This document shows, piece by piece, positions 42,666 to 62,984 of a stretch of 64,000 nucleotides of DNA (positions are counted from its first letter, which is position 1; every line of letters begins with the position of its first letter). The DNA is taken from positions 16,665-80,664 of the forward strand of contig JBHPDM010000001.1 in NCBI GenBank assembly GCA_042577285.1, in the 5' to 3' direction. The position numbers were made by a program, and so were the translations under genes. The DNA comes from Candidatus Omnitrophota bacterium (lineage in GTDB: Bacteria; Omnitrophota; Gorgyraeia; Gygaellales; Profunditerraquicolaceae). The notes below the pieces were generated by a model. The model was not told the DNA's origin. It made no database searches and saw only the letters and a list, made by a program, of their open reading frames with translations.

Positions 42666-42681
42666 CTCATCCTAATTTAAC

Positions 42682-45600: not shown

Positions 45601-45918
45601 ATGAAATGGTTCATAGAAGAGTTGTTTTGAGCCCTTAGAGGTTCTAATAAAGGTCCGGAATCCCAGAAGATGGGTAAACCTCCAGGCTTTATTTGCCGGA
45701 AAGAATTCAAGGATCGAATGTTCCTTATCCTTGCTGCCGAATGCAGAAACCCCTTGCCCCCTGTTGACGTAAAAGACCCAGATCGGGATACCGTATCTAC
45801 CTGCTATACCGGGGAAGAAGCTGGCAAAGGGTTTAGAGGAGTTAAAATTGCTGATCGAGAACTCCCCGTTTTCCTCTATGCTATATTTTACGGATCCTCT
45901 GATATGGCCTTTACTCAT
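42682..45918 (-). CDS. GH94-family glycoside phosphorylase-like protein (cellobiose/chitobiose phosphorylase or cyclic beta-glucan synthase-related)
   Basis: 1078 aa. From memory, three stretches resemble GH94 cellobiose phosphorylase: VTLAPGESKDIHSLIG, GKPNWYDALNGL and WLENESIWMHMEYKYLL (catalytic (alpha/alpha)6 barrel). Assignment to a specific substrate is not possible. Confidence 0.5.
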   Translation of the reverse strand: MSKGHIRGSVKYSIEENGEFSISNFNSSKPFASFFPGIAGRYGIPIWVFYVNRGQGVSAFGSKDKEHSILEFFPANKAWRFTHLLGFRTFIRTSKGSKQLFYEPFHNGFSNAGFHLSNNISITPYDLKLKETNRTLGLEVEVEYFTIPNDSYGALARTLSVRNSSKKKISLQLIDGLPRIVPYGTANLFLKKLGRTIEAWMGVKNLENGVPFYKIDVDPVDRAQVIHIKGGNFYLPFHYNGKRPKVLKAVVDPKYIFGPSNDLSCPHEFISCRNFTLPKTQITRSQMPCGFAFLKVTLAPGESKDIHSLIGSMHSPAALNSSLNRITGRGYLDKKRRENRDLILKLQSDIDTGSSSSRFNHYAKQTYLDNIMRGGYPVILGNEKRKNVFYMYSRKHGDLERDYNKFHIQSSYFSQGDGNYRDLNQNRRCDVWFNPEVGDENLITLCNLLQSDGYNPLVVKVARFSARSRSSLKKKLGRLAPARSIKKILSFLDGPFTPGELAFFLKNHRVRLNVPIDEFLQTLLADCAKHQEAEHREGFWTDHWTYNLDLLENYLSIYPEKKSEIIFNKKVFTFFDSAQTVNPRKHKYQVLEGKLRQLSSVSLHQAKSTIIGKRTTFANTSRTRHGKGKIYKTTLINKLLCLIGNKLATLDPFGVGIEMEAGKPNWYDALNGLPALFGSSLNETFELKRLIIFVRESLRSCGIKRLKITLEACQLLDALYRLIGENLESNRPERDFRYWDRSASVKEAYRAKTILGFSGKEKRVTSARIDSILELALKKLEAGIKKAKDRKTGVYCAYFINEITRSAPLKSPYINAKAFRQKRLPLFLEGQVHALRLAENKKSALALHRATRKSALFDRNLKMYKVTTSLKGMPQEIGRCRAFTPGWLENESIWMHMEYKYLLELLRGGLNEEFYKDFKNLLPPFQDPKIYGRSTLENTSFIVSSAHTDRSLWGNGFTARLSGSTAEFINIWLLMNVGARPFWIDSKARLSLRFKPILARWLFAKDNTYSFNFLSKIRIVYHNPKRKDTFGRDAVKVKRIAFRDNSGRQVEISSDTLPSPYAQQFRARQIKHADIFLG

Positions 45919-45978
45919 GTCTGTTTCATTATTTTACACAAATTAGGGCTTTTGTCCACATAAATCTTGGCGACAATT

Positions 45979-46008
45979 CTTGACTTTTAGAGGGATTGAT
46001 GTTAGTAT
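45979..46008 (+). promoter_or_regulatory. candidate promoter TTGACT-18-TAGTAT upstream of gatC
   Basis: TTGACT at 45979..45984 and TAGTAT at 46003..46008. Lies in the divergent intergenic region. Confidence 0.35.
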
Positions 46009-46031
46009 TAAAATCTGATACAGGAGGCAAG

Positions 46032-46319
46032 ATGTCCCTATCCAAAAAGACAGTTGATTACGTGGCCCACCTTGCTCGTATCGACTTGAAGCCAAAGGAA
46101 TTAGAGAAATTATCTGGCCAGCTGAAGGGGATCATCGATTTTATCGGCAGGCTCAAAAAAGCCGATGTGAGTAAAGTCGATCCTACGAGCCATATCCTGC
46201 CGATAAGTAATGTCTTGCGGGAGGATGAGCCGCAAGATTCTTTATCCAGTACCCAGGCCCTTGAGAACGCGCCAGAGCTAAGGGAAAACTTCTACGTGGT
46301 CCCCAAGATAATCGAATAA
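46032..46319 (+). CDS. gatC: Asp-tRNA(Asn)/Glu-tRNA(Gln) amidotransferase subunit C
   Basis: ATG at 46032 after CAGGAGG. VAHLARIDL…E…L…IL…V…LREDE matches the GatC pattern. Confidence 0.85.
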   Translation: MSLSKKTVDYVAHLARIDLKPKELEKLSGQLKGIIDFIGRLKKADVSKVDPTSHILPISNVLREDEPQDSLSSTQALENAPELRENFYVVPKIIE

Positions 46320-47741
46320 ATGGAGCTTGCACACCTTTGCGCCCACCAGTTAAAAGAAAAAATAGCTAAAAGCGAGATTTCCTCCCAGGAGATAGCCTCT
46401 GCTCTGGGTAAACGGATTCAGTCTGTGGATAGCAGGGTAAAGGCCTATGTGCGGTCGGGTGGGAAAGCCGCTCTAGCGAAAGCCGCAGGGAGCGGCATCC
46501 CGGTAACTATAAAAGATAATATCTGTACCCTTGGCCTCAATACCGAGTGCTGCTCCAGGATCCTTGATGGCTTCAAGCCGCCGTACGACGCCACAGTAGT
46601 CAAGAAGCTAAGCGAAGCAGGCCATCCGGTTCTACCGCTGAAGACGAATATGGATGAATTTGCATTTGGTTCATCCACCGAGAATTCATGCTTCGGCCCT
46701 ACACACAATCCCTGGGATTTAGATCGGGTACCGGGAGGTTCATCCGGGGGTTCTGCGGCGGCAGTTGCTGCAGATCTAGCGATCTGGGCGTTAGGCTCTG
46801 ACACCGGCGGCTCAATCCGTCAGCCGGCTGCGTTTTGCGGAGTAGTAGGATTGAAGCCCACATACGGAAGGGTCTCCAGATACGGACTGATCGCTTTTGC
46901 TTCAAGCCTTGATCAGGTCGGGCCGCTGACTAAGGATGTCAGGGATGCGGCAATTTTGACCGGGATCATCTCCGGGCATGACCCGAAGGATTCGACTTCA
47001 GCAGTTAGGGATGTCCCGGATTTCACTAAGATGTTAGGGAGAGATCTAAAGGGTATCAAGGCGGCTGTGCCAAGGGAATATTTTGTCAAGGGGATCGACC
47101 CGGAAGTAAAGGCCAGGGTCAATGATGCAGTCGTTGAGCTGAAGAAGTTAGGGTGCGATGTAAGGGAGGTCTCTTTGCCGCATACCGAATATGCGGTACC
47201 GGTCTATTATATTGTAGCGACTGCAGAAGCAAGCTCTAACCTGGCAAGGTTTGACGGCGTTCAATATGCTTTCCGCGCCAAGGAGGCTAAAGGCATGATC
47301 GATATGTATAAAAAGACTCGAGGTCAGGCCTTTGGAGATGAAGCTAAGCGGAGAAATATTCTGGGCACCTTTGTCTTATCGCACGGCTATTACGATGCCT
47401 ATTATCTTCGCGCGTTAAAGGTACGCACGCTGATCAAGCAGGATTTTGATAAGGTTTTTGAAGAATTCGATTGCATCGTCGCCCCGACCGCACCGACTCC
47501 TGCATTTAAGCTGGGCGAAAAAACAGAAGACCCTTTGAAGATGTATCTTTCGGATATCTACACGATCTCAGCGAATTTAGCCGGGATCCCGGCGATATCA
47601 ATACCTTGCGGCCTTACTAAAGACGGATTGCCGGTCGGACTACAACTTTTAGCTAAGGCCTTTGATGAAGAGATGCTCTTTCGGGTAGCCTATGCCTATG
47701 AGCAGAGCACGTCCTGGCATACAAAAAAACCAAAGTTATAA
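46320..47741 (+). CDS. gatA: Asp-tRNA(Asn)/Glu-tRNA(Gln) amidotransferase subunit A
   Basis: Amidase signature [13 protein letters not shown] and the KDNI…G motif. Confidence 0.95.
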
Positions 47742-49175
47742 ATGGAATACGAAGTCGTTATCGGACTAGAAGTCCATCTTCACTTAAATACTAAGACCAA
47801 GGCCTTTTGCGGCTGCTCTACCGAGTTCGGCAAAGCCCCTAATTCGCAGGTCTGTCCGGTATGCCTTGGTTTCCCCGGGTCTTTGCCTGTACTAAACGGC
47901 ATTGCTCTGGATTACGCAATAAAGGTGGCCCTGGCCTTAAACTGCGAGGTCCAGGAATTCACTAAATTCGACCGCAAGCATTATTATTATCCTGATCTGC
48001 CGAAAAATTATCAGATCTCTCAGTACGACTTACCGGTGGCAAAGAACGGAAATCTTAATATTGAGCAGGAGGGTAAGAGCAAACGGATCGGGATCTTGCG
48101 CGTACACCTTGAGGAGGACGCCGGCAAACTGATCCACGAAAAAGATTCGAGCTTAGTTGATTTTAACCGTGCCGGTATTCCATTGCTTGAGATAGTCAGC
48201 CTCCCGGATATTAATTCGCCTCAGGAGGCGCACGCATATCTGAGCAGCCTAAAGACCACGCTTGAATACCTGGATGTATCGGACTGCGATATGGAAAAGG
48301 GGTCTCTGCGTTGTGACGCAAATATTTCGTTGCGCAAAAGCCAAGCTAAGCAGTTAGGGATAAAAACAGAACTAAAAAATATGAATTCTTTTAAAGCGGT
48401 AAAGGATGCCTTGATCTATGAGGTGGCGCGCCAGACTGAATCCTTAAGGGCAGGTAAAAAAATCGTTCAGGATACCAGGCTCTGGGATGCCAAGGAGGCA
48501 AAGACACTTTCTATGCGCTCAAAGGAGGAGGCGATGGATTACCGCTATTTCCCTGAGCCGGACCTTGCGCCATTTCTGATCTCTAAAGAGAAGATCAAAA
48601 AGATCTCTGCGGAGATCCCGGAGTTGCCGGCGATGAAGCTGAAGCGTTTCATCAGGGAGTTCGGCCTCTCTGAATATGATGCCGGGATACTTGTGGCCTC
48701 CAGGCCGGATGCGGAATTCGCACAAAACTGTATAGAAGCATATCCGGAAAAGGATAAAAAACCTGTGGTTAACTGGCTGATCGGCCCTGCGCTTTCCGAG
48801 GCAAACGAGCGCAAATGCAGCATGCAAGAGTTAAAATTAAGACCGGATGCCTTAATGAAGCTGATCGGCTTTGTGGCCAGCGGAAAGATCTCAAACTTGG
48901 CGGCTAAAACGGTATTTAAGGAGATGGTCGATGCCGGAAAGGGCGCAGAGGAGATCATCAAAGAGAAAAACCTGGGGCAGATCTCAGATAAAGACAGCCT
49001 TAATGACCTGATCAAAGAAGTGATAAGGGAGAATAAGAAATCAGCCGGTGATTTTCGGGCCGGTAAGATCAATGCACTGATGTTTCTAGTAGGTCAGGTG
49101 ATGAAGAAGAGTAAGGGAAAAGCTAATCCAAAAACGGTGCAGGAACTTTTAAAGCGGAGGCTGACTGATGCGTAG
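47742..49175 (+). CDS. gatB: Asp-tRNA(Asn)/Glu-tRNA(Gln) amidotransferase subunit B
   Basis: MEYEVVIGLEVHLHLNTKTKAFCGC. Confidence 0.95.
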   Translation: MEYEVVIGLEVHLHLNTKTKAFCGCSTEFGKAPNSQVCPVCLGFPGSLPVLNGIALDYAIKVALALNCEVQEFTKFDRKHYYYPDLPKNYQISQYDLPVAKNGNLNIEQEGKSKRIGILRVHLEEDAGKLIHEKDSSLVDFNRAGIPLLEIVSLPDINSPQEAHAYLSSLKTTLEYLDVSDCDMEKGSLRCDANISLRKSQAKQLGIKTELKNMNSFKAVKDALIYEVARQTESLRAGKKIVQDTRLWDAKEAKTLSMRSKEEAMDYRYFPEPDLAPFLISKEKIKKISAEIPELPAMKLKRFIREFGLSEYDAGILVASRPDAEFAQNCIEAYPEKDKKPVVNWLIGPALSEANERKCSMQELKLRPDALMKLIGFVASGKISNLAAKTVFKEMVDAGKGAEEIIKEKNLGQISDKDSLNDLIKEVIRENKKSAGDFRAGKINALMFLVGQVMKKSKGKANPKTVQELLKRRLTDA

Positions 49176-50445
49176 GAAGCTTATAATCTTTTGTGTGTTA
49201 TTGATCTTGGTTACGCTGGTAGTCTTTGCTAACAGGGCGATATCGGCTATGGAGAAGAAGAATAAAGATGACCTCTTCAGACAGGTCAGCCTCTTCTCTG
49301 ATACGATCGCGATCATCCAGTCGGAATACGTAGAAGAGGTCCCCTCGCGGGATCTGATCTACGGAGCCCTTAAGGGGTTGCTTTCGGCCCTGGATCCGCA
49401 TAGCCAGTTTCTTGACCCTGATTCCTATAAAGAATTGAAGGTTGAAACTGAAGGCAGGTTCGGGGGGCTGGGAATCGAGATCACGATCAAAGACGGGTTA
49501 CTGACTATAATTACCCCGATAGAGGATACCCCCGCTTGGGATATCGGCCTAAAGGCAGGCGACAGGATAGTCAAGATCGAAGACGAATTGACCCGCGACA
49601 TGACGCTTATTGATGCGGTGAAGCGTTTACGCGGCAAACCCGGGGATGCGGTAAATATCACAGTTTTGCGAGAGTCGGAAAAAAAGCTTATTGATTTTAA
49701 GATCGTCAGAGCAATAATCAAGATAAAGGATATAAAGGTCGCGAAGATCTTGGAGGATGGCACCGCTTACATCAAGCTTGTGGAATTCCGCGAGAATTCG
49801 GCCAGAGACATCAACCGGGCCCTGGAGGCTCTAAAAAAAGAGGGGATGGATTCATTGATCCTGGATCTGCGCAATAATCCGGGAGGCCTGCTTGATGTGG
49901 CAGCAAAGGTTGCGGGAAGTTTTATCGAGAAGGACAAGATGATCGTCTATACCAAGGGGAGAGAAGGACACCAGGATCTTGAATTTATCTCCCGCGAAGA
50001 TTCACCGCTCCTTGAATTGCCGATGGTGGTTCTGATCAATGAAGGATCAGCCTCGGGTAGCGAGATCGTCGCCGCCTGCCTGCAGGATCATAAACGGGCT
50101 ATTATCCTGGGGATCAAATCCTTTGGGAAAGGTTCTGTTCAGACGGTGATACCGCTGGGGGATGGCTCGGCATTAAGGCTGACGACAAGCAAGTATTTTA
50201 CACCGCTGGGCAAGGAGATCCATGAAAAGGGAGTTGAACCTGATATTGTCGTAGAACAACCCCAGGAGTCTGAGCAGGCCGTCGATGAAAAGAAAGATGT
50301 ACCGGGTAAGATATTTGAAGAGCTTGACCAAAAAAAAGAGGAAGAGGCAGGTCTTGATGAAAAAGATAAAAGTGATCATCAGCTTGTCAGGGCAATAGAC
50401 GTGATCAAAGCCCTGAAGATCTACAGAAAAACAAATAGCCAGTGA
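49168..50445 (+). CDS. ctpA: carboxyl-terminal processing protease (S41A)
   Basis: PDZ domain plus the S41 catalytic region (GSASGSEIVA…FGKGSVQ). Confidence 0.9.
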   Translation: MRRKLIIFCVLLILVTLVVFANRAISAMEKKNKDDLFRQVSLFSDTIAIIQSEYVEEVPSRDLIYGALKGLLSALDPHSQFLDPDSYKELKVETEGRFGGLGIEITIKDGLLTIITPIEDTPAWDIGLKAGDRIVKIEDELTRDMTLIDAVKRLRGKPGDAVNITVLRESEKKLIDFKIVRAIIKIKDIKVAKILEDGTAYIKLVEFRENSARDINRALEALKKEGMDSLILDLRNNPGGLLDVAAKVAGSFIEKDKMIVYTKGREGHQDLEFISREDSPLLELPMVVLINEGSASGSEIVAACLQDHKRAIILGIKSFGKGSVQTVIPLGDGSALRLTTSKYFTPLGKEIHEKGVEPDIVVEQPQESEQAVDEKKDVPGKIFEELDQKKEEEAGLDEKDKSDHQLVRAIDVIKALKIYRKTNSQ

Positions 50446-51245
50446 AGCGGGTCTTTGTATCGGGGAATCTTGGCGTTTACAAAGCAGCGGTGATCGTTCT
50501 CTCGACGATAGTCATCCTGCAATGGGCGCTCTTTTTTATTTTTATCCGGCCCAAGATCAGGGATATTACTTACGCTCCGCTTAAGGGTAAGATCGCTATC
50601 GTGATCGACGACTGGGGTTACAGCCTGCAAAACATTCAGACGATCAGCCAGTTCCGCTTTCGGGTCACAGTTTCGGTCCTGCCGAACCTGAAGTTTTCAA
50701 GGGTGGTTGCTGAGAAACTTCACGGGATGGGGCATGAAGTGATCCTGCATCTTCCGATGGAGCCGCAAGAACCTAAGCGGCTGGAAAAGAATACTATCCT
50801 CACCTCAATGGATGCGTCTATGGTCAGAAATATATTGGCCGATGACCTGAAACAGCTGCGCCTGGCGCAAGGAGTATCCAATCACATGGGCTCGAGAGCA
50901 ACCGAAGACATGGAAACGGTCACCGCTTTGTTCAAGGAGTTAAAACGGAGGAAGCTATATTTTCTTGATAGCCGGGTAAGTACGAAATCCGTATGCCAGA
51001 AAGTAGCGGCGAGCCAGAGATTGCGATTCGCTAAGAGAGACGTGTTTCTTGATAATCGCTCTGACCCGGAATACATCTTGGCTCAGATAGAAGAATTAAA
51101 GGAGAGAGCCGTTGCCTTTGGCATGAGCATAGGTATCGGCCATGACCGCCGTAATACTCTCGAGGTCCTAAGGGAGGTAATTCCCGAACTTGAAAAGGAG
51201 GGATTTAAAATGGTGGTCCTCTCGGAGCTGGTGAAAAAGCAATGA
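50442..51245 (+). CDS. divergent polysaccharide deacetylase family protein (YibQ-like)
   Basis: GTG start with an N-terminal TM. IAIVIDDWGY…HLPMEP… resembles the YibQ family. Confidence 0.65.
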   Translation: MKRVFVSGNLGVYKAAVIVLSTIVILQWALFFIFIRPKIRDITYAPLKGKIAIVIDDWGYSLQNIQTISQFRFRVTVSVLPNLKFSRVVAEKLHGMGHEVILHLPMEPQEPKRLEKNTILTSMDASMVRNILADDLKQLRLAQGVSNHMGSRATEDMETVTALFKELKRRKLYFLDSRVSTKSVCQKVAASQRLRFAKRDVFLDNRSDPEYILAQIEELKERAVAFGMSIGIGHDRRNTLEVLREVIPELEKEGFKMVVLSELVKKQ

Positions 51246-52219
51246 ATGTCATGGGAATCGAGACCTCCTGCGATGAGACGGCTGCTGCGGTAGTGCGTGA
51301 CGGCAGAAAGGTCCTCTCTAATGTCGTGGCTTCAAGCCTTGCGCTGCACAAAAGATTTGGCGGAGTGGTGCCGGAAATAGCCTTCCGCAAACAACTGGAG
51401 ACGATCACGCAGGTAGCAGACAGCTCGCTGGATAGGGCAGGGCTGAACTTAAAAGATATAGGATTGATCAGCGTTACCTCTTCACCCGGGCTTTTGGGGT
51501 CATTGCTGGTCGGCCTTTCATTTGCCGAAGGTGTTTCCCTAAGCAGGGGGATCCCGCTTTTGCCGATAGATCACCTTCAAGGGCATATTTATGCCGGCTT
51601 TCTTAACGATGAAAAGATCCCTTTCCCCTTTGTTTCTTTAGTCGCCTCAGGCGGGCACACTAGCCTGTATTTGGTAAAGGATTTTAGCCGGATCGTTCCA
51701 ATAGGTGCGACCCGGGATGATGCATCAGGAGAGGCCTTTGATAAAGTCGCAAAGATCCTCGGATTAGGTTATCCGGGCGGACCGCCGATAGAACGGCGGG
51801 CCCGCAGGGGGGATCCAAAATTGATCAGGTTTGCCTGCAGCAATACCCCGCATCCGCTGGATTTTAGTTTTAGCGGTATTAAAACAGCCGTACTCTATTA
51901 TTGCCGAGATAAAAAGATTAAGCCGCTGGCAGATAAGCGAATCTCGGATGTTGCTGCTTCCTTCCAGGAGGCGGTGGTGGATACCCTGGTCAAGAAGTCC
52001 CTTTCTGCCTGCGCAAAGACGAAGGCAAGGCACCTGGTGATCGGAGGAGGGGTGGCTGCAAACCAGAGGTTAAGAGAAAAGTTCCATTCAGGGGCAGCTT
52101 TAGCGGGGGTAAAGTGCCACTTTCCGCAGAAGGCCTACTGTATGGATAACGCCGCGATGATCGCAGGGCTAGGATACCGTCTTTTTAAAAAAGGATACCG
52201 AGGAGGTAGCTATGCTTAG
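51242..52219 (+). CDS. tsaD: tRNA N6-adenosine threonylcarbamoyltransferase TsaD
   Basis: MNVMGIETSCDETAAAV…. Confidence 0.95.
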   Translation: MNVMGIETSCDETAAAVVRDGRKVLSNVVASSLALHKRFGGVVPEIAFRKQLETITQVADSSLDRAGLNLKDIGLISVTSSPGLLGSLLVGLSFAEGVSLSRGIPLLPIDHLQGHIYAGFLNDEKIPFPFVSLVASGGHTSLYLVKDFSRIVPIGATRDDASGEAFDKVAKILGLGYPGGPPIERRARRGDPKLIRFACSNTPHPLDFSFSGIKTAVLYYCRDKKIKPLADKRISDVAASFQEAVVDTLVKKSLSACAKTKARHLVIGGGVAANQRLREKFHSGAALAGVKCHFPQKAYCMDNAAMIAGLGYRLFKKGYRGGSYA

Positions 52220-52664
52220 TGAATCCCAGATCATAATCAGGTTAACGCTGGCAGTGGTGCTCAGCGGACTAGTGGGCCTGGAGCGGCAGATGCACCGCCG
52301 CCATGCGGGCCTGCGCACTCATATCCTGGTCTGTCTTGGGTCTTGTCTAATAATGTTGACATCCTTATACGTTTTTGATATATATATAAACAAAGTCCCT
52401 CTTGACCCGGCCAGGATCGCAGCAGGCGTGATCGCCGGTATCGGCTTTCTGGGGGCGGGCACGATCATCAGGGAGAGCGACCGGATCAGGGGTCTGACAA
52501 CTGCGGCAAGCCTTTGGGTGATCGCAGGTATCGGCCTGGCGGTGGGTTGTGGCTTCTTTGTGGGAGCTGTTTATACTACGGTACTGGTATTAGTGGTTTT
52601 ATTTTTTTTAAGGCGTCTGGAGGCGCAAGTCAAATTAAAGGAAAATCAAGCTAAGAGGAGGTGA
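52212..52664 (+). CDS. MgtC/SapB family membrane protein
   Basis: IIIRLTLAVVLSGLVGLERQ…. Confidence 0.8.
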   Translation: MLSESQIIIRLTLAVVLSGLVGLERQMHRRHAGLRTHILVCLGSCLIMLTSLYVFDIYINKVPLDPARIAAGVIAGIGFLGAGTIIRESDRIRGLTTAASLWVIAGIGLAVGCGFFVGAVYTTVLVLVVLFFLRRLEAQVKLKENQAKRR

Positions 52665-52673
52665 GCTAGGAAA

Positions 52674-53177
52674 ATGGCTTTTAAGAAAAAGGCGGATGAA
52701 AAAATACTGGATGTGGATGCAGCGATGCAGGGGTCCCTTAACTTTAAGGATCCGGTGAACCTGCGGATAAACGGGAAATTCGAGGGCACCCTTGAGACAA
52801 AGGGTAACTTGACCGTGGGCTCTACCGCTACAGTTCTGGCAGATATTATCGGCGATAATATCGTGATCGGCGGCAGGGTGAAGGGTAAGATTACAGCCAA
52901 AGAGAGGCTGACGCTTCTTCCTACGGCGATCATCGAAGGTAATATATTCCCGGCAAAATTGAATGTCGCAGAAGGCGCGATATTCGAGGGCAAGTGCACG
53001 ATGCTTCACGATTTTCTGACCTCAGAGGAGTTATCCCGGTACCTTGATGTCGATCTGAATTCGATCATGGACTGGGCTAATTCCGGGAAAGTCCCTGCTT
53101 TAAAGGAAGGCGAGGCCTGGAGGTTTGAAAGAAAGGCGATCGATTCCTGGGTCGCTACGGGCAAGGTAAAGAAGTAA
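52674..53177 (+). CDS. bactofilin domain fused to C-terminal excisionase-type HTH domain
   Basis: Residues ~20-105 form a bactofilin beta-helix (INGKFEGTLETKGNLTVGSTATV…IEGNIFPAKLNVAEGAIFEGKCTM). The C-terminus SRYLDVDLNSIMDWANSGKVPALKEGEAWRFERKAIDSWV is paralogous to the HTH protein at 2015..2203. Confidence 0.75.
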   Translation: MAFKKKADEKILDVDAAMQGSLNFKDPVNLRINGKFEGTLETKGNLTVGSTATVLADIIGDNIVIGGRVKGKITAKERLTLLPTAIIEGNIFPAKLNVAEGAIFEGKCTMLHDFLTSEELSRYLDVDLNSIMDWANSGKVPALKEGEAWRFERKAIDSWVATGKVKK

Positions 53178-53205
53178 GCCCACCAATCAATAGAACGGCT
53201 TAAAA

Positions 53206-53517
53206 ATGGCTGATGAGAAACTTTTGACCGTCAGGGATGCCGCTGCCGTCTTGGGCATCACTGAAAAAGAGATCATGGATCTGGCTGAAAATGGCTCTAT
53301 CCCCGCGTATAAGATAGGCGGAGTATACCTGCGCTTCAAGCCTTCGCAGCTGGAACTTTATCAAAAGAGCATTAACCCCGCAGCACATAAAAGCAAGCCT
53401 GCGGATACAAGGAGCGCGGGTAGTAAGCTTTCCGACTTTTTGTATTTTAATGATTTTTATATCATAGCCGCAGCGGTGATCGTCCTGCTCTTTGTGATCA
53501 TTTTTAGTGGGTCTTAG
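53206..53517 (+). CDS. excisionase-type HTH protein with C-terminal transmembrane anchor
   Basis: LLTVRDAAAVLGITEKEIMDLAENGSIPAYKIGGVYLRF is the HTH. The C-terminus FYIIAAAVIVLLFVIIF is a TM helix. Confidence 0.65.
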   Translation: MADEKLLTVRDAAAVLGITEKEIMDLAENGSIPAYKIGGVYLRFKPSQLELYQKSINPAAHKSKPADTRSAGSKLSDFLYFNDFYIIAAAVIVLLFVIIFSGS

Positions 53518-53520
53518 CAA

Positions 53521-54186
53521 GTGGAGAAGGTCGGAATCTGCGATCTGGGGTTTGCAAAGATAGACCTGGAGAGGCTCAGCAGGAGAGGATTCTCCGAGGC
53601 CATATATTGCACCGGAAAGACCAGGGAACAGCTCAAAAATATCTGCCTTGGGCTTTCTAAGAATAAACAGGATCTACTGCTCACCAGGCTAGAGAAGAAG
53701 ACTTACCGGTACCTGAAGCGTTCCTTTAAGCAACTTAAATATAATCCTACCGCTAGGATCGGCTATACGCACAAACTCAAGAAGGGCCGCGGCAAAGGGT
53801 CAGTCTTGGTCGTCACTGCCGGTACATCTGATATGCCGGTAGCTGAAGAGGCGGTGCTGACGCTTAGATTAATGGGGAGCAGGTGTGAGGTGCTCTGCGA
53901 TGTGGGCGTTGCCGGGGTACACCGGTTGCTGCGAAACCTTAAAACCCTGAAAAAAGCGAAGGTGATCGTCGTAGTCGCCGGTATGGAGGGAGCGCTGGCA
54001 AGCCTGGTAAGCGGGCTGGTGAAATGTCCGGTGATCGCGGTACCGACAAGTTGCGGTTACGGGGCAAGTTTTAAAGGCCTGGCAGCATTGTTGGCGATGC
54101 TCAACAGCTGTTCACCCGGCGTTGCGGTGGTAAATATTGACAATGGTTTTGGTGCGGGATATTTTGCCGCCCTGATCAATAAATAA
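53521..54186 (+). CDS. larB: nickel-pincer cofactor biosynthesis protein LarB (PurE-like)
   Basis: GTG start. VLVVTAGTSDMPVAEEA…VVVAGMEGALASLVSGLV…IAVPTS matches the LarB/PurE fold. Confidence 0.75.
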   Translation: MEKVGICDLGFAKIDLERLSRRGFSEAIYCTGKTREQLKNICLGLSKNKQDLLLTRLEKKTYRYLKRSFKQLKYNPTARIGYTHKLKKGRGKGSVLVVTAGTSDMPVAEEAVLTLRLMGSRCEVLCDVGVAGVHRLLRNLKTLKKAKVIVVVAGMEGALASLVSGLVKCPVIAVPTSCGYGASFKGLAALLAMLNSCSPGVAVVNIDNGFGAGYFAALINK

Positions 54187-54192
54187 GTTTCT

Positions 54193-54612
54193 ATGGGCCA
54201 AAATAGGATCAGCTTAAAGAAAGCGACGGAGTTTCACGGACATCTTGGCCCCTGGTTGGTGTTGGGGATATTGATGGGGGAGCGAGCGTTAAAACTTATA
54301 CAGGCAAAGAAATACTTTGGAGTAAGGGTAAAAGTTTGGGGGGTAAGCAAGAAACCCAGGTCATGCCTGATCGACGGTTTGCAGCTTTCTACAGGGGCAA
54401 CTTTCGGTAAGGGAAATATTATTAAGTTAAACGGGGAACGCGTTAAAACAGAACTTTTAAATATAAAAAACGGGAAGAAAGCAGTCTTTAAGTTACAGAA
54501 TAAGATTTTATCCGAGTTAATCGCTGTAAAATCTCACAAAGATTCTGAATTTCTTGCCCGACGTCTTTACAAGACTAAGTTATCAGACATTTTACTAATA
54601 ACTAAAGACTAA
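54193..54612 (+). CDS. FmdE/FwdE-domain protein
   Basis: EFHGHLGPWLVLGILMG matches the FwdE-family HGH-x-CPG-like motif region. Confidence 0.55.
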   Translation: MGQNRISLKKATEFHGHLGPWLVLGILMGERALKLIQAKKYFGVRVKVWGVSKKPRSCLIDGLQLSTGATFGKGNIIKLNGERVKTELLNIKNGKKAVFKLQNKILSELIAVKSHKDSEFLARRLYKTKLSDILLITKD

Positions 54613-54628
54613 TAACTAGAAACTAAAA

Positions 54629-55957
54629 ATGGCTCTTTCCGGACTAGATATCTATAAATTATTGCCCAAGACTAACTGCAAGGAGTGCGGATTTGCTACG
54701 TGTCTGGCCTTTGCCATGCAGATCGCAAAAAAGGCTGCAAGCCTGGATAAGTGCCCTCATTTGACGGATGACGCTAAGGTAAAGCTTGAGGAATCAAGTC
54801 AACCCCCGGTAAAATTAGTCAGCATCGGCGCGGGCGAGAATAAATTAGAAGTAGGTAACGAAACCGTCCTCTTCCGGCATGAAGAGAAGTTCCATCATCC
54901 ATGCGGCATAGGTTTTATCATTGAATCGGATCAGGCAGAGCCTGCGATCAAAGAAAAACTCAATAAGATCAATCAGCTGAAATTTGAGCGCGTGGGGCAA
55001 GAGATCAGTGTCAACCTGGTAGCAGTAAGGCAGAAGGGCTCTGCCGAGGGTCTGATCAAAGCGCTAAAGATAGTAGTCGAGAATACGCAGTTAGGACTTA
55101 TGCTGATGGTCGATGACCCCGAGGCTTTAAAGAGCTGCCTTGAGATCACCAGGGAGCGTAAGCCTTTGATCTACCGGGCAACAAAGGAAAATGCCTCGTC
55201 GTTTTCAAAGTTGGCCGCGGAATTCAAGTCTGCGCTTGTAGTCAGCGCAGAGGAGATCGAAGGACTTTCTGCACTGACTAAAGAAGCGAATAACCAGGGC
55301 GTGCAGGAATTAATCCTGGATACCGCAAGCAAAGGCGTGGCGCAAAAAATATGGGATTTTACCCGGATCAGGAGACAGGCATTAAAAAAGTCTGACCGCA
55401 GCTTAGGGTATCCGGTTTTAGCGGTGATCGAAAAAGATGACCCCTTCGAAGAAGCGATGGAAGTAGCTACATTTATCTGCAAATATGCCGGGATCGTGCT
55501 GATGAAGAGCATAGAATCATGGCAGGCTTTATCATTGTTGACTCTCAGGCAGAATATATACACTGATCCGCAGAAACCCCTGCAGATCGAGCCTAAGCTT
55601 TATGAAGTCGGACAGGTAAGCGCCGGATCCCCGCTTCTTGTAACCACTAATTTTTCCCTTACTTATTATACTGTCTTGGGAGAAGTCGAGGCAAGTAAGG
55701 TCCCCTCCTACATCTTAAGCGTTGACACCGAGGGGATGTCCGTACTTACTGCCTGGGCAGCAGAGAAATTTACGCCGGAGAGTATCACTAAGGCGATCAC
55801 AAAGTTTGGAGTCAAAGATAAGATCTCGCACAAGAATATGATCATCCCGGGTTATGTAGCAGTGTTAAGCGGCGACCTTGAAGAAAGCTCAGGCCTTAAG
55901 GTCAGCGTCGGCCCAAAAGAGGCTGCCGGTATCCCAAGCTTTCTGAAGAATCTTTAA
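54629..55957 (+). CDS. acsC: corrinoid iron-sulfur protein large subunit (acetyl-CoA decarbonylase/synthase gamma subunit)
   Basis: The N-terminus LDIYKLLPKTNCKECGFATCLAFAMQIA…KCPH is the 4Fe-4S binding region of AcsC/CdhE. A TIM-barrel region and a corrinoid-binding domain follow. Confidence 0.85.
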   Translation: MALSGLDIYKLLPKTNCKECGFATCLAFAMQIAKKAASLDKCPHLTDDAKVKLEESSQPPVKLVSIGAGENKLEVGNETVLFRHEEKFHHPCGIGFIIESDQAEPAIKEKLNKINQLKFERVGQEISVNLVAVRQKGSAEGLIKALKIVVENTQLGLMLMVDDPEALKSCLEITRERKPLIYRATKENASSFSKLAAEFKSALVVSAEEIEGLSALTKEANNQGVQELILDTASKGVAQKIWDFTRIRRQALKKSDRSLGYPVLAVIEKDDPFEEAMEVATFICKYAGIVLMKSIESWQALSLLTLRQNIYTDPQKPLQIEPKLYEVGQVSAGSPLLVTTNFSLTYYTVLGEVEASKVPSYILSVDTEGMSVLTAWAAEKFTPESITKAITKFGVKDKISHKNMIIPGYVAVLSGDLEESSGLKVSVGPKEAAGIPSFLKNL

Positions 55958-55961
55958 AGAT

Positions 55962-57893
55962 ATGGAAAAATTCAAAGTAAAGTTTTACCCTGAGGATAAG
56001 ACCGTTGAGGTCCCTAGGGGCAAGACCATACTTCATGCTGCTATATCGGCAGGCGTCTACATTAATACCAGCTGCGGGGGTGACGGAGTCTGCGGAAGGT
56101 GCAAGGTGATCCTCAAGCAGGGTAGCGTCAGCTCTCAGCCTACAGGGAGGATCAGCATCCAACAGAGGAAACTCGGATATTACCTGGCATGTCTTACTAC
56201 CGTCCAGAGCGATCTTGAGGTTGAGATACCTCCTGAATCAAGGCTGGAACTGGAGAAACTTTCCGGTGAGGATCTGGACCTGAGATTAAAAGGGCTTTAT
56301 TCAGAGAGCGAGAATATAGAGTCTCCCGTATCGGTGTTGGGTGAAAAGTTTTTTACACACTCTCCGTTGGCCACAAAATTATATCTGGAGCTGCCAAAGC
56401 CATCACTTGACGATAAGATCTCGGATCTCGAGAGGCTGTACCGGCAGATCAGGCGGATAGAGGATATCCCGATCATGCAGACCGGGCTTGCCAACATCCG
56501 AAGGTTGGGTGGACTCTTGCGTTCCTCAGACTGGAAGGTCACGGTCACTCTGGGTAAGCGGAACGGGACAACCGAAATCGTGCTGACCGAACCGCATGAT
56601 ACTTCCGGGAATAATTATGCCCTGTGTTTTGATATCGGTACGACGACTATCTCCGGCCAACTGATCGACCTCAAGGAAAAGAAAGTCCTTGGCACAAAGG
56701 TTACCTATAATAAACAGGCAAGCTACGGAAGCGACGTGATCACGCGGATCATCTATGCCCGGGAGAAGGATGGCCTTGAGAAACTGCATCATGCCGTAAT
56801 CGACGGCTTGAACCAGATGGTCCAGGATCTTGTGCGCGAGCATTCAATAGACCTGATTAATGTCACCGCTGTCGTCTGCGCCGGTAATACCACTATGGTC
56901 CATCTCTTATTACGGGTAGATCCTGCCAATATCAGGAGGGAGCCATATGTGCCTACGGCTAATTTCGTACCGACGGTACGCGCCGCAGAATCCGGCTTGA
57001 GGGTAAACCCGAGAGGCCTCCTGTACTGTGTCCCCGGAGTTGCCAGCTATATAGGAGGAGATATTACTGCCGGGGTCCTCGCCTGCGGGCTCGATTCTGC
57101 CGAGGACTTAAGCCTCTTGATCGATATCGGGACTAACGGGGAGATCGTTTTGGGGAGTAAGGACTTTCTGATCTCGGCGGCTGCATCCGCCGGTTCGGCA
57201 TTTGAGGGGAGCGGGATGACTTCCGGGATCCGGGCCACAAAAGGGGCGATGCAAAAGATCAAGATTACGCCAAAGACTCTTGATGTAGCTTTTGAGACGA
57301 TCGGAGGGAGCAAGCCGCTTGGCATATGTGGGTCAGGGTATATCGATCTGCTGGCAGAATTGCTTTCCTGCGGCGTGGTCGATAAAGATGGAAAGATAAA
57401 ACCGCTGGAGAATAAACGTATCCGTAGCGGCGAATCGGGCCGCGAATTTGTGATCGCTTTTAAAAAAGATGCCGATGCCAGCCAGGATATTGTGATCAGC
57501 GAGCCGGATATCGAAAACCTGAAGCGGGCAAAGGCTGCGATCTATTCTGCCGGTGCAACCTTGATCAAGCACATGGGATTTGAATTTTCCGGGATCAGTA
57601 AAGTATTTATCGGGGGCGGCTTTGGCACGTATATTAATATAGAGAATGCTATAAGGATCGGGCTCCTGCCGGATATCGATAGGTCCCGGTTTGTTTTTGT
57701 GGGAAACTGCTCTTTGACGGGAGCGCGCCACGTATTGCTTTCATATGAGGCGATGAAGAAAGCGGAAGAGATCGCAAAGAAGACTACCTGTTTTGAGTTA
57801 TCGGTCGATGCCGGATACATGGATGAATACATGGCAGCGATGTTCTTCCCGCACACTGATCTCTCGCGGTTTCCCAGCTTGGAAAAGAAATGA
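55962..57893 (+). CDS. corrinoid activation/regeneration protein (RACo/AcsV; 2Fe-2S ferredoxin + ASKHA ATPase)
   Basis: N-terminal plant-type ferredoxin CGGDGVCGRCKV. A C-terminal ~500-aa ASKHA/DUF4445 region. Confidence 0.8.
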   Translation: MEKFKVKFYPEDKTVEVPRGKTILHAAISAGVYINTSCGGDGVCGRCKVILKQGSVSSQPTGRISIQQRKLGYYLACLTTVQSDLEVEIPPESRLELEKLSGEDLDLRLKGLYSESENIESPVSVLGEKFFTHSPLATKLYLELPKPSLDDKISDLERLYRQIRRIEDIPIMQTGLANIRRLGGLLRSSDWKVTVTLGKRNGTTEIVLTEPHDTSGNNYALCFDIGTTTISGQLIDLKEKKVLGTKVTYNKQASYGSDVITRIIYAREKDGLEKLHHAVIDGLNQMVQDLVREHSIDLINVTAVVCAGNTTMVHLLLRVDPANIRREPYVPTANFVPTVRAAESGLRVNPRGLLYCVPGVASYIGGDITAGVLACGLDSAEDLSLLIDIGTNGEIVLGSKDFLISAAASAGSAFEGSGMTSGIRATKGAMQKIKITPKTLDVAFETIGGSKPLGICGSGYIDLLAELLSCGVVDKDGKIKPLENKRIRSGESGREFVIAFKKDADASQDIVISEPDIENLKRAKAAIYSAGATLIKHMGFEFSGISKVFIGGGFGTYINIENAIRIGLLPDIDRSRFVFVGNCSLTGARHVLLSYEAMKKAEEIAKKTTCFELSVDAGYMDEYMAAMFFPHTDLSRFPSLEKK

Positions 57894-58663
57894 TATCGGC
57901 GGGCTCTATGGCGCACGTAATCGCACTAGCTGGTAAAGGAGGTACAGGTAAGACCACGGTCGCCTGTCTCCTGATCAGGCTGTTGAAAGATAAAGGGGCT
58001 GGTTCGATCCTGGCGATCGATGCCGATCCAAACAGTAATCTTGCAGAGGCCTGCGGAGTCGCGGCATCTGATTCGGTGGGTTCTATCCTCGAGGATATCT
58101 CGAAGGACCCAAAGTCGATCCCTGCCGGGGTTTCAAAGGACAGCTTTATCAATTACCAGGTACAGACAGCGATCAGCGAAGGTGAAGGATTTGACCTGCT
58201 GACTATGGGCAGGTCCGAAGGCCCCGGCTGCTATTGCTACGTTAATAATGTGCTCCGGGGGATCATTGAGCGGACGACCAAGGATTACGATTACATAGTC
58301 ATAGATAATGAAGCGGGCCTTGAGCATCTCTCGCGGCGCACCATGCGAAGAGCAGATGTTTTACTGATAGTTTCGGATCCCAGCAGGATAGGCCTTAAAT
58401 CCGCACAGCGCATTGATGCCCTGGCAAAAGAGCTTGAATTCAAGGTGGCAAAGCGCCTGCTGATCACAAACCGTGCTGATCAGCGGATCAAAGATGAGCT
58501 GCTTGAGGAGCTGGGATTAGAGCCGGAATACCTGGGGAATATCCCTGAAGACCATTATATAGGTAAGAACAGTCTTAACGGCGCCTCCCTGATGAAACTA
58601 GATGGCGGGAGTAAGGCCCTACAGGCACTGGAAGAGATCGGAGGCAGGATTTGGCAAGTTTGA
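57890..58663 (+). CDS. cooC: CO dehydrogenase/ACS nickel-insertion ATPase CooC (AcsF)
   Basis: Deviant Walker A IALAGKGGTGKTTVA and a CxC motif (PGCYCYVN). Confidence 0.85.
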   Translation: MISAGSMAHVIALAGKGGTGKTTVACLLIRLLKDKGAGSILAIDADPNSNLAEACGVAASDSVGSILEDISKDPKSIPAGVSKDSFINYQVQTAISEGEGFDLLTMGRSEGPGCYCYVNNVLRGIIERTTKDYDYIVIDNEAGLEHLSRRTMRRADVLLIVSDPSRIGLKSAQRIDALAKELEFKVAKRLLITNRADQRIKDELLEELGLEPEYLGNIPEDHYIGKNSLNGASLMKLDGGSKALQALEEIGGRIWQV

Positions 58664-59589
58664 TCAACACAATAACTATAGGGGCGACAAAGGAGGAGGG
58701 GGGTACCCGTTCAAGCGTGATCAAAGCGGGTGGCCAGAATACCCTACCCCTGCTATTTAGCGATGGCTCAATCCCTAACCAGCCGGCGATCGCCTTTGAG
58801 ATATGGGATACCGCGCCCGGTGACTGGCCCGAAGAGCTGGTTAAGGCATATAGCAGCGTTTTAAAGGATCCGTTATCCTGGGCGAAGATGTGCGTTAATG
58901 AATATAAGGCGGCGGCAATATGTATAAGGCTAAGAGGCGCGCATCCTGACTTTGGCAATAAAGGGGCTGACGAAGAGGCCAAGTTGATCTCAGAGCTATT
59001 GAAGAAGGTGAGCGTACCATTGATCATTCTGGGGTGCGGTGACGACGAAAAGGATAACCAGATCCTGCCTGCCTGCTGCCAGGCAGCTAAGGGTGAGCGC
59101 TGCCTGATCGGAGAGGCAGTACAGGACAATTATAAGACGATCGCCGCAGCAGTCCTGGCTGACGGCCATAATATCATCGCCCAATCCCCTATTGATATCA
59201 ATATCGCCAAACAGCTGAATATTCTGATCTCTGATATGGGGATGCCTTTGGAGCGCATCGTGATCAATCCCACGATCGGCGCATTAGGCTACGGCCTTGA
59301 GTATGCCTATTCGATAATGGAGCGGGCAAGGCTGGCCGCACTTGCCGGAGATAAGACTATGGCATTGCCGTTCTTCTGCTTGATCGGACAGGAGGCCTGG
59401 AGGGCAAAGGAGGCAAAGGCTAAGCTTGAGGAGTTTCCCACATGGGGCCCACAAGCTGAGCGCGGAGTGATCTGGGAGGCGATAACCGCAACCGCCCTGA
59501 TCCAGGCAGGAGCGGATATCCTGGTGATGCGTCACCCAAAAGCAGTGGATAAGGTCAATAATTACATCGGAGAACTCTTCAGGAGATAG
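58651..59589 (+). CDS. acsD: corrinoid iron-sulfur protein small subunit (ACDS delta subunit)
   Basis: ~310-aa TIM-barrel protein following acsC-cooC. The conserved region FCLIGQEAW is present. Confidence 0.75.
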   Translation: MASLINTITIGATKEEGGTRSSVIKAGGQNTLPLLFSDGSIPNQPAIAFEIWDTAPGDWPEELVKAYSSVLKDPLSWAKMCVNEYKAAAICIRLRGAHPDFGNKGADEEAKLISELLKKVSVPLIILGCGDDEKDNQILPACCQAAKGERCLIGEAVQDNYKTIAAAVLADGHNIIAQSPIDINIAKQLNILISDMGMPLERIVINPTIGALGYGLEYAYSIMERARLAALAGDKTMALPFFCLIGQEAWRAKEAKAKLEEFPTWGPQAERGVIWEAITATALIQAGADILVMRHPKAVDKVNNYIGELFRR

Positions 59590-59592
59590 GCT

Positions 59593-60381
59593 ATGTTTAT
59601 AATCGGTGAGTTGATCAACGGGATGTATACTGATATAGGAATTGCGATCAAGGAGAAAGATAAGTCAGTGATCCAGAAGCGCGCGGTCGAACAGGTCAAG
59701 GCGGGCGCTGATGCGCTTGATGTCAATTGCGGGCCGGCGTCAAAGGATCACGAAAACGATATCCAGTGGTTGGTCGAAACCATACAGGAGGTCTGTGATA
59801 AACCACTCGCCCTTGATTCCAGTAAGCCAAAGGTGATCGAGTCCGGGTTAAGGGCAGTAAAGAACAAGGCGATAATCAACTCTACTACAGCAGATCCGGA
59901 GAAGCTTGCAGTACTGATCCCGCTTGCTAAGCAGTATAACGCCAGACTGATCGGGATCACGATCAGCGCGAAGGGGATCCCTCAGAACAAGGACCAGAGG
60001 CTTGAGCTGGCAGCAAGTATAGTGGCCGCCTGCGTTGAGCAGGAGTTTCCGGTCGAGGATCTTTATCTGGACCCGATCGTCCTTCCGGTGAATGTGGCGC
60101 AGGCGCAGATGCCTGATATCTTTGAAGCAATACGCGAATTTAAGATCATCTCTGACCCCTCACCTAAAACCATAGTCGGTTTAAGCAATGTTTCGCAGGG
60201 GACATGCGAGCGGCCGATCATCAACAGGACATTCCTTACTATGGCCGTTGCCTACGGTCTTGACGGCGCGATCCTTGATCCGCTCGACCGGGAGTTAGTC
60301 GATGCCGCGATCACCGCGGAGCTTGTCTTAAACAAGCACATCTACTGCGACTCGTTCTTAGATGCCTACAGGAAGAAGTAG
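59593..60381 (+). CDS. acsE: methyltetrahydrofolate:corrinoid/iron-sulfur protein methyltransferase
   Basis: Pterin-binding (DHPS-like) barrel MFIIGELINGM…ALDVNCGP…IINST. Confidence 0.8.
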   Translation: MFIIGELINGMYTDIGIAIKEKDKSVIQKRAVEQVKAGADALDVNCGPASKDHENDIQWLVETIQEVCDKPLALDSSKPKVIESGLRAVKNKAIINSTTADPEKLAVLIPLAKQYNARLIGITISAKGIPQNKDQRLELAASIVAACVEQEFPVEDLYLDPIVLPVNVAQAQMPDIFEAIREFKIISDPSPKTIVGLSNVSQGTCERPIINRTFLTMAVAYGLDGAILDPLDRELVDAAITAELVLNKHIYCDSFLDAYRKK

Positions 60382-60382
60382 G

Positions 60383-60769
60383 ATGAAACGAAGAAGAGTT
60401 TTAAGGCATATATTCCGTTTTCGCAACCTCCGGGAAAGTTTCTCGCTTGCCGCAAGGGGAATAGCTTATTTATTCCTCTACCACCATAATATGCGTCTGA
60501 TCTTCCTGCTTGGAATCCTTGCTTTTCTTCTCGGTCTATACTTTAGATTAAGAGGCATCGAGTTGGCCGCGCTGTGTATTACGATCACCCTGGTATTTAT
60601 GGCGGAGATCTTTAATACTGCGATCGAGATGATGATGGACCTGTTTACTGCCAGGTACCATACACTCGTGAAGCTGGTAAAGGATATCGCTGCCGGCGTA
60701 GTCCTTTTAGCATCTTTAAATGCCGCGGCAGTAGGGTATATCCTTTTTGCAAGGAGGTTGATGAAATAA
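60383..60769 (+). CDS. dgkA: diacylglycerol kinase family protein (DgkA)
   Basis: FMAEIFNTAIEMMMD matches the E-x-N-(S/T)-AIE motif. Three TM segments. ATG at 60383 is preferred over the overlapping 60362. Confidence 0.75.
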   Translation: MKRRRVLRHIFRFRNLRESFSLAARGIAYLFLYHHNMRLIFLLGILAFLLGLYFRLRGIELAALCITITLVFMAEIFNTAIEMMMDLFTARYHTLVKLVKDIAAGVVLLASLNAAAVGYILFARRLMK

Positions 60770-61152: not shown

Positions 61153-61155
61153 CGT

Positions 61156-61184
61156 TTGACAAACCAGGGTGTTTATACTAAAAT
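61156..61184 (+). promoter_or_regulatory. sigma70-like promoter TTGACA-17-TAAAAT upstream of tpsB
   Basis: TTGACA at 61156..61161 and TAAAAT at 61179..61184. AAAGGAG RBS. Confidence 0.55.
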
Positions 61185-61219
61185 GCTTTATAAAGTCATT
61201 AACATAAAGGAGTGCTAAA

Positions 61220-62920: not shown

Positions 62921-62956
62921 GCCACTTTATAAAACCTCCTTTTTAAAGATTTTTAC

Positions 62957-62984
62957 TTGACAAAACAATTTTTAGTGTTATACT
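62957..62984 (+). promoter_or_regulatory. sigma70-like promoter TTGACA-16-TATACT upstream of tpsA
   Basis: TTGACA at 62957..62962 and TATACT at 62979..62984. Confidence 0.5.

Follow-up and report, generated by a model that had tools for sequence, protein, structure and literature searches.

Within a 64,000-nucleotide stretch of a Candidatus Omnitrophota contig (JBHPDM010000001.1, assembly GCA_042577285.1; the whole stretch is referred to here as the window), two adjacent genes encode a bactofilin fused to a winged helix-turn-helix (HTH) domain (ORF1) and a small membrane protein with an HTH domain of the same family (ORF2). Both open reading frames (ORFs) are present on the plus strand where an initial annotation, made from the sequence alone, had placed them (Table 1). 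The domain search that this annotation had proposed returned two Pfam domains in ORF1, both above cutoff: Bactofilin PF04519 at residues 11-108 (E 2.5e-24; 85.8 bits, cutoff 27.9; profile positions 2-97 of 98) and HTH_17 PF12728 at residues 114-162 (E 3e-11; 43.9 bits, cutoff 27). The beta-helix is thus present as claimed, but it spans about residues 11-108 instead of ~20-105. HTH_17 was also matched in ORF2 (39.1 bits) and in a stand-alone protein encoded elsewhere in the window (residues 4-54, E 1e-16, 61.4 bits), and all three proteins exceeded the domain cutoff of the NCBIfam model TIGR01764 ('excise'). A hidden Markov model (HMM) built from these three domains detected no fourth HTH_17-like domain in the 64-kb window. 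ORF2 had been described as carrying the same HTH followed by a C-terminal transmembrane helix; fold, family and helix were borne out, but its HTH is no close copy, with 30% identity to that of ORF1 (E 2e-6). The stand-alone HTH is closer to ORF1 (37% identity, E 5e-14). In the AlphaFold2 model of ORF1, the beta-helix is followed by a beta-alpha-alpha-beta-beta-alpha winged helix (predicted local distance difference test score (pLDDT) 82, predicted template modelling score (pTM) 0.67).

Table 1 Features of the bactofilin-HTH_17 locus and related elements (positions in the window)
Feature	Position	Strand	Basis
ORF1, bactofilin-HTH_17 fusion protein, 167 aa	52674..53177	+	ORF call, Pfam
ORF1 N-terminal peptide MAFKKKAD, putative membrane-targeting sequence	52674..52697	+	resemblance to consensus, conservation
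ORF1 bactofilin beta-helix domain, residues 11-108, with F104	52704..52997	+	Pfam, Foldseek, HMM alignment
ORF1 linker from beta-helix to winged helix, G106-x-C108-x-M110-L111-H112-D113	52989..53012	+	conservation
ORF1 winged helix of HTH_17/excisionase fold, residues 114-162, canonical DNA face acidic	53013..53159	+	Pfam, NCBIfam, model
ORF2, tail-anchored HTH_17 membrane protein, 103 aa, obligate neighbour of ORF1	53206..53517	+	ORF call, Pfam
ORF2 winged helix, residues 6-54	53221..53367	+	Pfam (E 9e-10), model
ORF2 juxtamembrane motif D-F-(F/L)-Y-F-N-D-F-Y, residues 77-85, invariant	53434..53460	+	homologue comparison
ORF2 C-terminal transmembrane helix, residues 83-101, 2 residues after	53452..53508	+	model, hydropathy
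MgtC-family membrane protein gene, ends 9 nt before ORF1 start	52212..52664		sequence
AGGAGG Shine-Dalgarno-like site, 12 nt 5' of the ORF1 ATG, just ahead of the MgtC stop	52656..52661	+	sequence
Stand-alone HTH_17 protein, 62 aa, closest paralogue of the ORF1 HTH; listed as a related element	2015..2203	+	Pfam

Judged by its sequence, the bactofilin half of ORF1 keeps the hallmarks of the family and looks fully functional. Foldseek matched its beta-helix to BacA of Caulobacter crescentus (2n3d; TM-target 0.82) and to ThBac of Thermus thermophilus (6rib), and HMM alignment placed BacA F130 and ThBac F105, the residues whose mutation blocks polymerisation, on ORF1 position 104. This position is Phe in the window protein and hydrophobic throughout the homologues from 88 loci on which residue and pairing counts given here are based unless another sample is named (L 45, F 39, M 2, I 2). 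The MAFKKK N-terminus resembles the membrane-targeting consensus of bactofilins, MFSKKKK, of which two hydrophobic residues enter the bilayer while the lysines bind lipid headgroups (PMC12448750). It is well conserved (A2 in 82 homologues, F3 in 83, K4 in 75, K5 in 72 and K6 in 65), and residues 1-9 are disordered in the AlphaFold2 model (pLDDT<50). Between the two domains, G106, M110 and D113 are found in 88/88 homologues, C108 in 86/88 and H112 in 74/88; divergent lineages have an extra 10-25 residues inserted after the conserved C-x-M. The Cys108/His112 pairs of two subunits could meet at a tail-to-tail filament junction, where a metal or redox site formed by them is conceivable. In a separate observation, one protein in the representative library (P0275) shares the distinctive N-terminal subfamily of the ORF1 bactofilin and has a C-terminal PilZ-like domain (RRxxxR ... 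NISTGG) replacing HTH_17, so that this bactofilin clade seems to swap C-terminal 'heads'.

The C-terminal domain of ORF1 was expected to be an excisionase-family HTH serving as a DNA-binding head. Its fold is indeed of this kind: besides the Pfam and NCBIfam matches, the AlphaFold2 model shows the elements of a winged helix (b114-116, a117-124, a128-137, b143-145, b148-152, a153-162), which Foldseek superimposed on BldC (6ama) with a root-mean-square deviation of 1.1 A over 49 residues. Further Foldseek matches were the RdfS excisionase, RacA, Tn916 Xis, Pukovnik Xis, CbpM and Rpp. Searching the PDB with a profile of the HTH domains from Omnitrophota likewise retrieved Pukovnik Xis (5e-7), RacA (5e-6; 4.9e-6 before rounding) and BldC (1e-5), where a single-sequence PDB search with the ORF1 HTH gave spurious GST matches only.

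The residues with which this fold contacts DNA have changed. In the BldC-DNA structure, Lys26 and Arg30 touch bases, Thr27, Thr29, Trp31 and Lys33 contact phosphates and the wing holds His46, Arg47 and Arg48, while RacA uses an Arg equivalent to BldC Arg30 (PMC5859096). We assigned the equivalent ORF1 residues by profile alignment to DNA-bound BldC, RacA and Pukovnik Xis and followed their conservation. At the site of the base-contacting Arg30, ORF1 has D133, and all 88 homologues carry an acidic residue (E 74, D 14). Lys26 corresponds to N129 (N 57, S 17, G 6, K 4, D 3) and Lys33 to N136 (N 74, S 9, others 5). On the wing, His46 is replaced by A148, a variable and often acidic position (D 39, N 12, E 10, A 7, G 6), Arg47 by W149 (W in 83 of 88) and Arg48 by R150 (K 63, R 25), leaving the wing tip acidic or variable. 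The net charge of the ORF1 HTH is -3 in the window and -4 to -2 across the homologues; BldC has +6, the stand-alone paralogue +3 and the ORF2 HTH about +1. As aligned, the canonical DNA-contact residues are lost from the fused winged helix, and sequence-specific reading of DNA through the canonical face is unlikely. Of the proposed DNA-binding head, the fold shared with BldC, Xis and RacA thus stands, but the DNA-binding part does not follow from it, given the E/D at the Arg30 site in every homologue, the mostly Asn replacements of the contact Lys and the negative charge; the annotation 'excisionase family DNA-binding' is probably misleading for ORF1. Apart from the fusion, a 231-residue protein (P0356) consists of three tandem HTH_17 repeats related to the ORF1 HTH, that is, a covalent array.

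ORF2 combines a winged helix with a C-terminal membrane anchor. Its AlphaFold2 model (pLDDT 74) consists of the winged helix (helices 9-16, 20-29 and 46-56, strands 35-37 and 41-44), a disordered linker (62-70), a juxtamembrane helix (72-81) and the helix at 83-101, whose block 91-100 has a mean pLDDT of 91. In 87/88 homologues the 17-residue window of highest hydropathy reaches to within 0-3 residues of the stop (median maximum 3.0), the sole exception being an apparently truncated ORF of 88 amino acids. Across the family, the winged helix is conserved and the linker variable. E20, K21, E22, E28, K36 and R43 are invariant in a 19-sequence sample, and the recognition helix is acidic, with E20, E22 and E28 invariant and D25, the equivalent of R30, being D/E/N in 83/88. 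The juxtamembrane motif is recognisable even in divergent partners, as DLLAYNDFY, LDFWRYNGFY or DLFYFNDFY.

The two genes are strictly paired. An ORF2 homologue, typically of 101-104 amino acids, lies directly 3' of the fusion gene in 88/88 loci, with a median gap of about 15 bp. The pair is kept in divergent lineages (36-50% identity) despite different flanking genes: it is present in L005 (47% identity), in L006 (45%), where GreA and ACPS genes lie downstream, in L088 (50%), with BatD and TPR genes upstream, and in L089 (36%), with SPOR and TPR-PDZ genes upstream. The most remote fusion, L090 (27% identity), is the only form without an HTH-TM partner downstream. In that locus (1..4567), a Volactin-family gene and a gene for a ParA/MinD-like ATPase lie upstream of the fusion, and the gene after it encodes a signal-peptide or membrane protein. 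Among the 79 species loci that served for neighbourhood identities, ORF1 had the highest median identity (76%, a value biased upward as the loci were selected by ORF1 similarity), followed by the LarB-like protein (67%), the peptidase (62%), TsaD (60%) and ORF2 (54%), in keeping with strong constraint on ORF1. The fusion thus ranks among the most conserved proteins of its neighbourhood across an uncultivated phylum.

A search of 5.8 billion proteins yielded 1,938 clusters related to ORF1. The top 120 clusters are 166-173 amino acids long, nearly all of them 167, contain both Pfam domains in all but one case and are 77-83% identical to ORF1, save two near-identical best matches. A scan of one genome per species found the fusion encoded in at least 483 species, and the window locus itself is 99% identical to L008, from a single-cell genome labelled Candidatus Omnitrophota. 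The initial annotation had named an assembly or frameshift artefact as the finding that would undo it; the occurrence of the same 167-residue fusion in hundreds of independent assemblies excludes this explanation. The phylogenetic distribution, for which the same annotation had asked, identifies the fusion as a lineage signature of Omnitrophota: the best 80 loci are labelled Omnitrophota/Omnitrophica (62), 'uncultured Planctomycetales' (13), without phylum (3), Pacebacteria bin (1) and Margulisiibacteriota bin (1). HMMER searches of 1.84 billion cluster representatives added ~20 full-length fusion clusters at 27-54% identity, and a profile of these divergent fusions recovered 244 proteins, of which the taxon-labelled ones are all Omnitrophota except for one 'Elusimicrobia' metagenome-assembled genome. 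Of the taxon-informative labels, all but three are Omnitrophota. The ORF1-ORF2 module is specific to, and near-universal in, the sampled Omnitrophota. No homologue of the fusion was found in phages, and the plasmid matches were plain bactofilins only; one Leptospira plasmid match that seemed to reach into the HTH was discarded, being an annotated 146-residue polymer-forming cytoskeletal protein with no separate HTH feature, and no case of the fusion outside Omnitrophota came to light. Some 'bactofilin-only' relatives in the representative library have garbage C-termini and look like frameshifted copies of the fusion. A full-text literature search turned up no account of a bactofilin-HTH fusion or of a bactofilin from Omnitrophota, in agreement with the initial annotation, according to which no such fusion is known to have been characterised. 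Databases call the ORF1 family 'polymer-forming cytoskeletal protein' or 'excisionase family DNA binding protein', and neither name conveys the fused architecture.

Since the two genes form an obligate pair, since their 'recognition' helices are acidic and their wings basic, and since the fold is known to self-associate or to bind proteins, coupling is the most economical reading of the module. We therefore propose, tentatively, that ORF1 and ORF2 constitute a membrane-associated cytoskeletal module whose winged helices couple rather than read DNA sequence, a protein-protein role that we regard as at least as likely as DNA anchoring. With its membrane-targeting-like N-terminus and the conserved interface residue F104, ORF1 would be expected to form end-to-end polymers at the cytoplasmic membrane, on its inner face, and the polymer would display a regular array of C-terminal winged helices, kept close by the short conserved linker. 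ORF2 would be a tail-anchored inner-membrane protein holding its winged helix on a flexible cytoplasmic leash of ~20 residues, with the conserved aromatic motif adjoining the membrane. The winged helices may associate mutually, as head-to-tail oligomers of the BldC/RdfS/Xis type, or with a basic client. Through this coupling, the bactofilin lattice would be locked to an anchor integral to the membrane, giving a fixed platform there. Any contact with DNA would presumably be non-specific and driven by avidity, through the conserved basic wing strands. There are precedents for each kind of association: the HTH_17 relative BldC oligomerises head to tail (PMC5859096), the bactofilin BacA binds the membrane client PbpC (PMC12448750), bactofilins bind the HTH protein BacR (PMC13649987), and CbpM and Rpp, both among the Foldseek matches, use the same fold for protein binding. 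RdfS is likewise reported to self-associate head to tail.

Several observations weigh against coupling as the function of the module. The basic residues K139, K144, K/R150, R153 and K154 are conserved in ORF1, and its C-terminal tail is basic as well; W134, the counterpart of the phosphate-backbone contact W31 of BldC, is kept, and the R30-equivalent is variable in divergent lineages, where it is sometimes R or K. DNA binding is the role of most characterised HTH_17/MerR-like winged helices, and the avidity of a polymer could make weak DNA binding the true function. The putative membrane-targeting peptide of ORF1 makes a second anchor seem redundant. Finally, the ORF1-ORF2 interaction, polymerisation and localisation, together with membrane binding and the nature of the cargo, are features that we infer.

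The nearest alternative is a nucleoid or chromosome tether, in which the winged helices of both the bactofilin polymer and the tail-anchored protein bind DNA and so fix the chromosome, or one specific region, to the membrane. Such a tether would do in one piece what RacA-DivIVA or BacNOP-PadC-ParB do. We consider it a serious rival, though a somewhat less likely one. Profile and structural similarity to the chromosome-anchoring RacA, to BldC and to Xis fits a tether, as do the conserved basic wing residues and W134, and polymer avidity could offset weak single contacts; a protein with three HTH_17 repeats such as P0356 would fit binding to repeated sites. Moreover, Myxococcus bactofilins organise the ParABS machinery (PMC5703909), and BacR binds DNA non-specifically as well as binding bactofilins (PMC13649987). 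What counts against a tether is the DNA face itself: the base-contacting Arg of BldC and RacA is Glu/Asp in 88/88 fusion proteins, Asn takes the place of two more contact Lys in the window protein and in most homologues, and the HTH has an acidic wing tip and a net charge of -3 (range -4 to -2). ORF2 adds four conserved acidic residues in its recognition helix. Of the DNA-anchoring system suggested initially, the architecture, a scaffold fusion beside a membrane-tethered protein of the same fold, is thus retained, but DNA binding is not the default reading. Plasmid positioning, also raised there, is unlikely because the locus is chromosomal, lies in a syntenic housekeeping context and has no phage or plasmid homologue of the fusion. 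In its boldest form, which we hold to be rather improbable, the membrane-bound bactofilin filament and the tail-anchored module would pin and organise the nucleoid directly, through wing strands and avidity, in place of the adaptor chains of model bacteria (RacA-DivIVA, PadC-ParB-bactofilin). Omnitrophota include ultra-small cells. Were direct tethering true, the module would gain considerably in interest; as it stands, the module is a candidate for nucleoid-membrane organisation in Omnitrophota.

A regulatory switch resembling BacR-BacEF appears unlikely. Here the HTH would regulate transcription, possibly of its own operon, with access to DNA set by the polymerisation or membrane state of the bactofilin, and, equally unlikely, ORF2 would act as a membrane-sequestered co-regulator. 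The Bacillus precedent is suggestive, as its HTH gene adjoins the bactofilin genes and encodes a protein that associates with bactofilins, is retained at the membrane and no longer binds DNA in the bound state (PMC13649987). In addition, two copies of a 10-bp direct repeat, TGATAACGTA, are placed around a promoter-like site ahead of the fusion gene in one divergent lineage. No DUF4004 match was found at E<=0.1, however, the main-clade gene has no upstream intergenic region of its own (9 nt after MgtC) and hence no obvious operator, and the acidic recognition helix counts against regulation too. The copies of TGATAACGTA lie 60 bp apart (L006 2330-2339 and 2390-2399; L007 338-347 and 398-407), downstream of a TTGACA promoter-like hexamer within the 224-bp region upstream of the fusion gene; the repeat does not occur in the other 88 loci, nor is it enriched in the window, and being confined to L006/L007 with a chance expectation of about p=0.04, it was not taken as evidence for an operator. 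Quite improbable, too, is a bactofilin domain that does not polymerise and serves a small HTH protein only for dimerisation or oligomerisation, because its beta-helix is capped at the C-terminal end by the HTH linked tightly to it. The linker of 8 largely invariant residues, the moderately confident arrangement of the single-chain model (pTM 0.67) and the need of bactofilin filaments for free C-terminal ends (F104-type interface) all agree with such capping, but the joint conservation of the interface residue and of the membrane-targeting-like N-terminus would be unexpected if membrane polymerisation had been lost, and other bactofilins polymerise despite C-terminal tails. As for a true excisionase, that is, a recombination directionality factor, or a defence HTH (MADS MAD1) of a mobile element, only family names speak for it (TIGR01764 'excise' and a sub-threshold MAD1 match), and we give it practically no weight. 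There is no integrase or recombinase nearby, housekeeping synteny is conserved in most of the 79 species loci, phage matches are missing and plasmids carry plain bactofilins only; with the MAD1 model NF047737 (cutoff 80 bits), ORF1 scored 41 bits and ORF2 31, PADLOC matches were weak and generic, and no defence genes lie nearby. Context and scores thus effectively rule out a mobile-element role of this kind.

Measured against known systems, ORF1 is a genuine member of both the bactofilins and the HTH_17 fold family and fails the functional hallmarks both of excisionases (recombinase context) and of its DNA-binding relatives (contact residues). With the canonical bactofilins BacA and ThBac, it shares the full DUF583 beta-helix, the N-terminus resembling a membrane-targeting sequence and the hydrophobic polymerisation residue, and, like them, it would be expected to polymerise at the membrane and to bring in a membrane client, as BacA does with PbpC. 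It differs in having a folded winged helix on a short linker instead of a disordered C-terminal tail, in its dedicated tail-anchored partner gene and in the restriction of the fusion family to Omnitrophota. Among characterised cases of an HTH linked to bactofilins, BacR (YhbD, DUF4004) of Bacillus subtilis comes closest; it is genetically linked to, and physically bound at the membrane by, the bactofilins BacE and BacF (PMC13649987). BacR, however, is a separate DUF4004 protein of ~210 residues with an N-terminal HTH, its gene lying upstream of the bactofilin genes, whereas the HTH_17 domain of ORF1 is covalently fused to the bactofilin and a second HTH_17, in ORF2, is membrane-anchored; in Pfam, the pair does not match DUF4004 (PF13171) at E<=0.1 and falls outside the BacR class.

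Among chromosome-organising systems, RacA-DivIVA of B. subtilis likewise couples a MerR-like winged helix, one with a profile match to ours, to a membrane or polar scaffold, and in BacNOP-PadC-ParB of M. xanthus bactofilins scaffold chromosome segregation proteins. But RacA keeps its base-contacting Arg, binds GC-rich ram sites and reaches the scaffold via a coiled coil, and the Myxococcus system uses adaptor proteins, whereas in ORF1 the winged helix is part of the scaffold protein itself and has no counterpart of the RacA Arg, which makes DNA binding doubtful: by the standard of a RacA-type anchor, fold and profile agree, but the Arg position does not (E/D in 88/88). BldC, Xis and RdfS share the fold and assemble head to tail into oligomers or filaments, and a bactofilin array could set up such a geometry in advance; in contrast to the ORF1 domain, which has a net charge of -3, no recombinase and a place on a cytoskeletal polymer, they are strongly basic and bind DNA. 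CbpM and Rpp show the same fold as a protein-protein module and are thus precedents for coupling, but the likeness is one of fold only, their partners being the CbpA J-domain and phage TerS. Bactofilins are widespread scaffolds with few known clients and functions. Here, a client- or DNA-binding part is fused to the filament and accompanied by a fixed membrane partner; what is new is that the bactofilin scaffold has its adaptor domain built in and a tail-anchored partner of its own, an arrangement conserved across a phylum. As a compact, heterologously expressible two-gene module, it offers a handle on how bactofilin lattices couple to membranes and cargo.

The third paralogue encoded in the window was reported to head a pilus operon, and this was confirmed: the stop of the stand-alone HTH_17 gene overlaps the start of a fused PilM-PilN gene (521 amino acids; region 2015..3768), which is followed by genes for PilO, secretin, PilB, PilC and pilins of a type IV pilus system. 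One idea raised by the sequence relationship is that HTH modules might link the pilus machinery to the bactofilin scaffold. In Myxococcus, the bactofilin BacP positions type IV pilus ATPases.

In the window, the MgtC stop lies only 9 nt before the ORF1 start, which suggests that ORF1 is co-transcribed with the upstream MgtC gene. A scan for promoters and terminators around the pair gave nothing above shuffle expectation, and Rfam showed no RNA element in or around it. Genes upstream in the main clade encode GatB, an S41 peptidase (CtpB), a YibQ-like deacetylase, TsaD and MgtC, those downstream a LarB-like protein, FmdE and CODH/ACS, and this housekeeping synteny is held in most of the 79 species loci. 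The MgtC gene is found upstream in 71/79 main-clade loci and in L088, and not in L005, L006 and L089. Downstream of the pair (53521..57893), the window encodes LarB/AIR-carboxylase-like and FmdE-domain proteins, a CODH/ACS corrinoid Fe-S protein (CdhD/FeS domains) and a RACo-like reductive activase; this gene set points to Wood-Ljungdahl-type metabolism in this Omnitrophota genome. Nearly all sizeable ORFs of the window (1..64000) are on the plus strand, the only large minus-strand ORF being at 42682..45918 (1078 amino acids). An RNase P RNA lies at 28214..28641, and tRNAs are located at 16504, 26211 and 27000.

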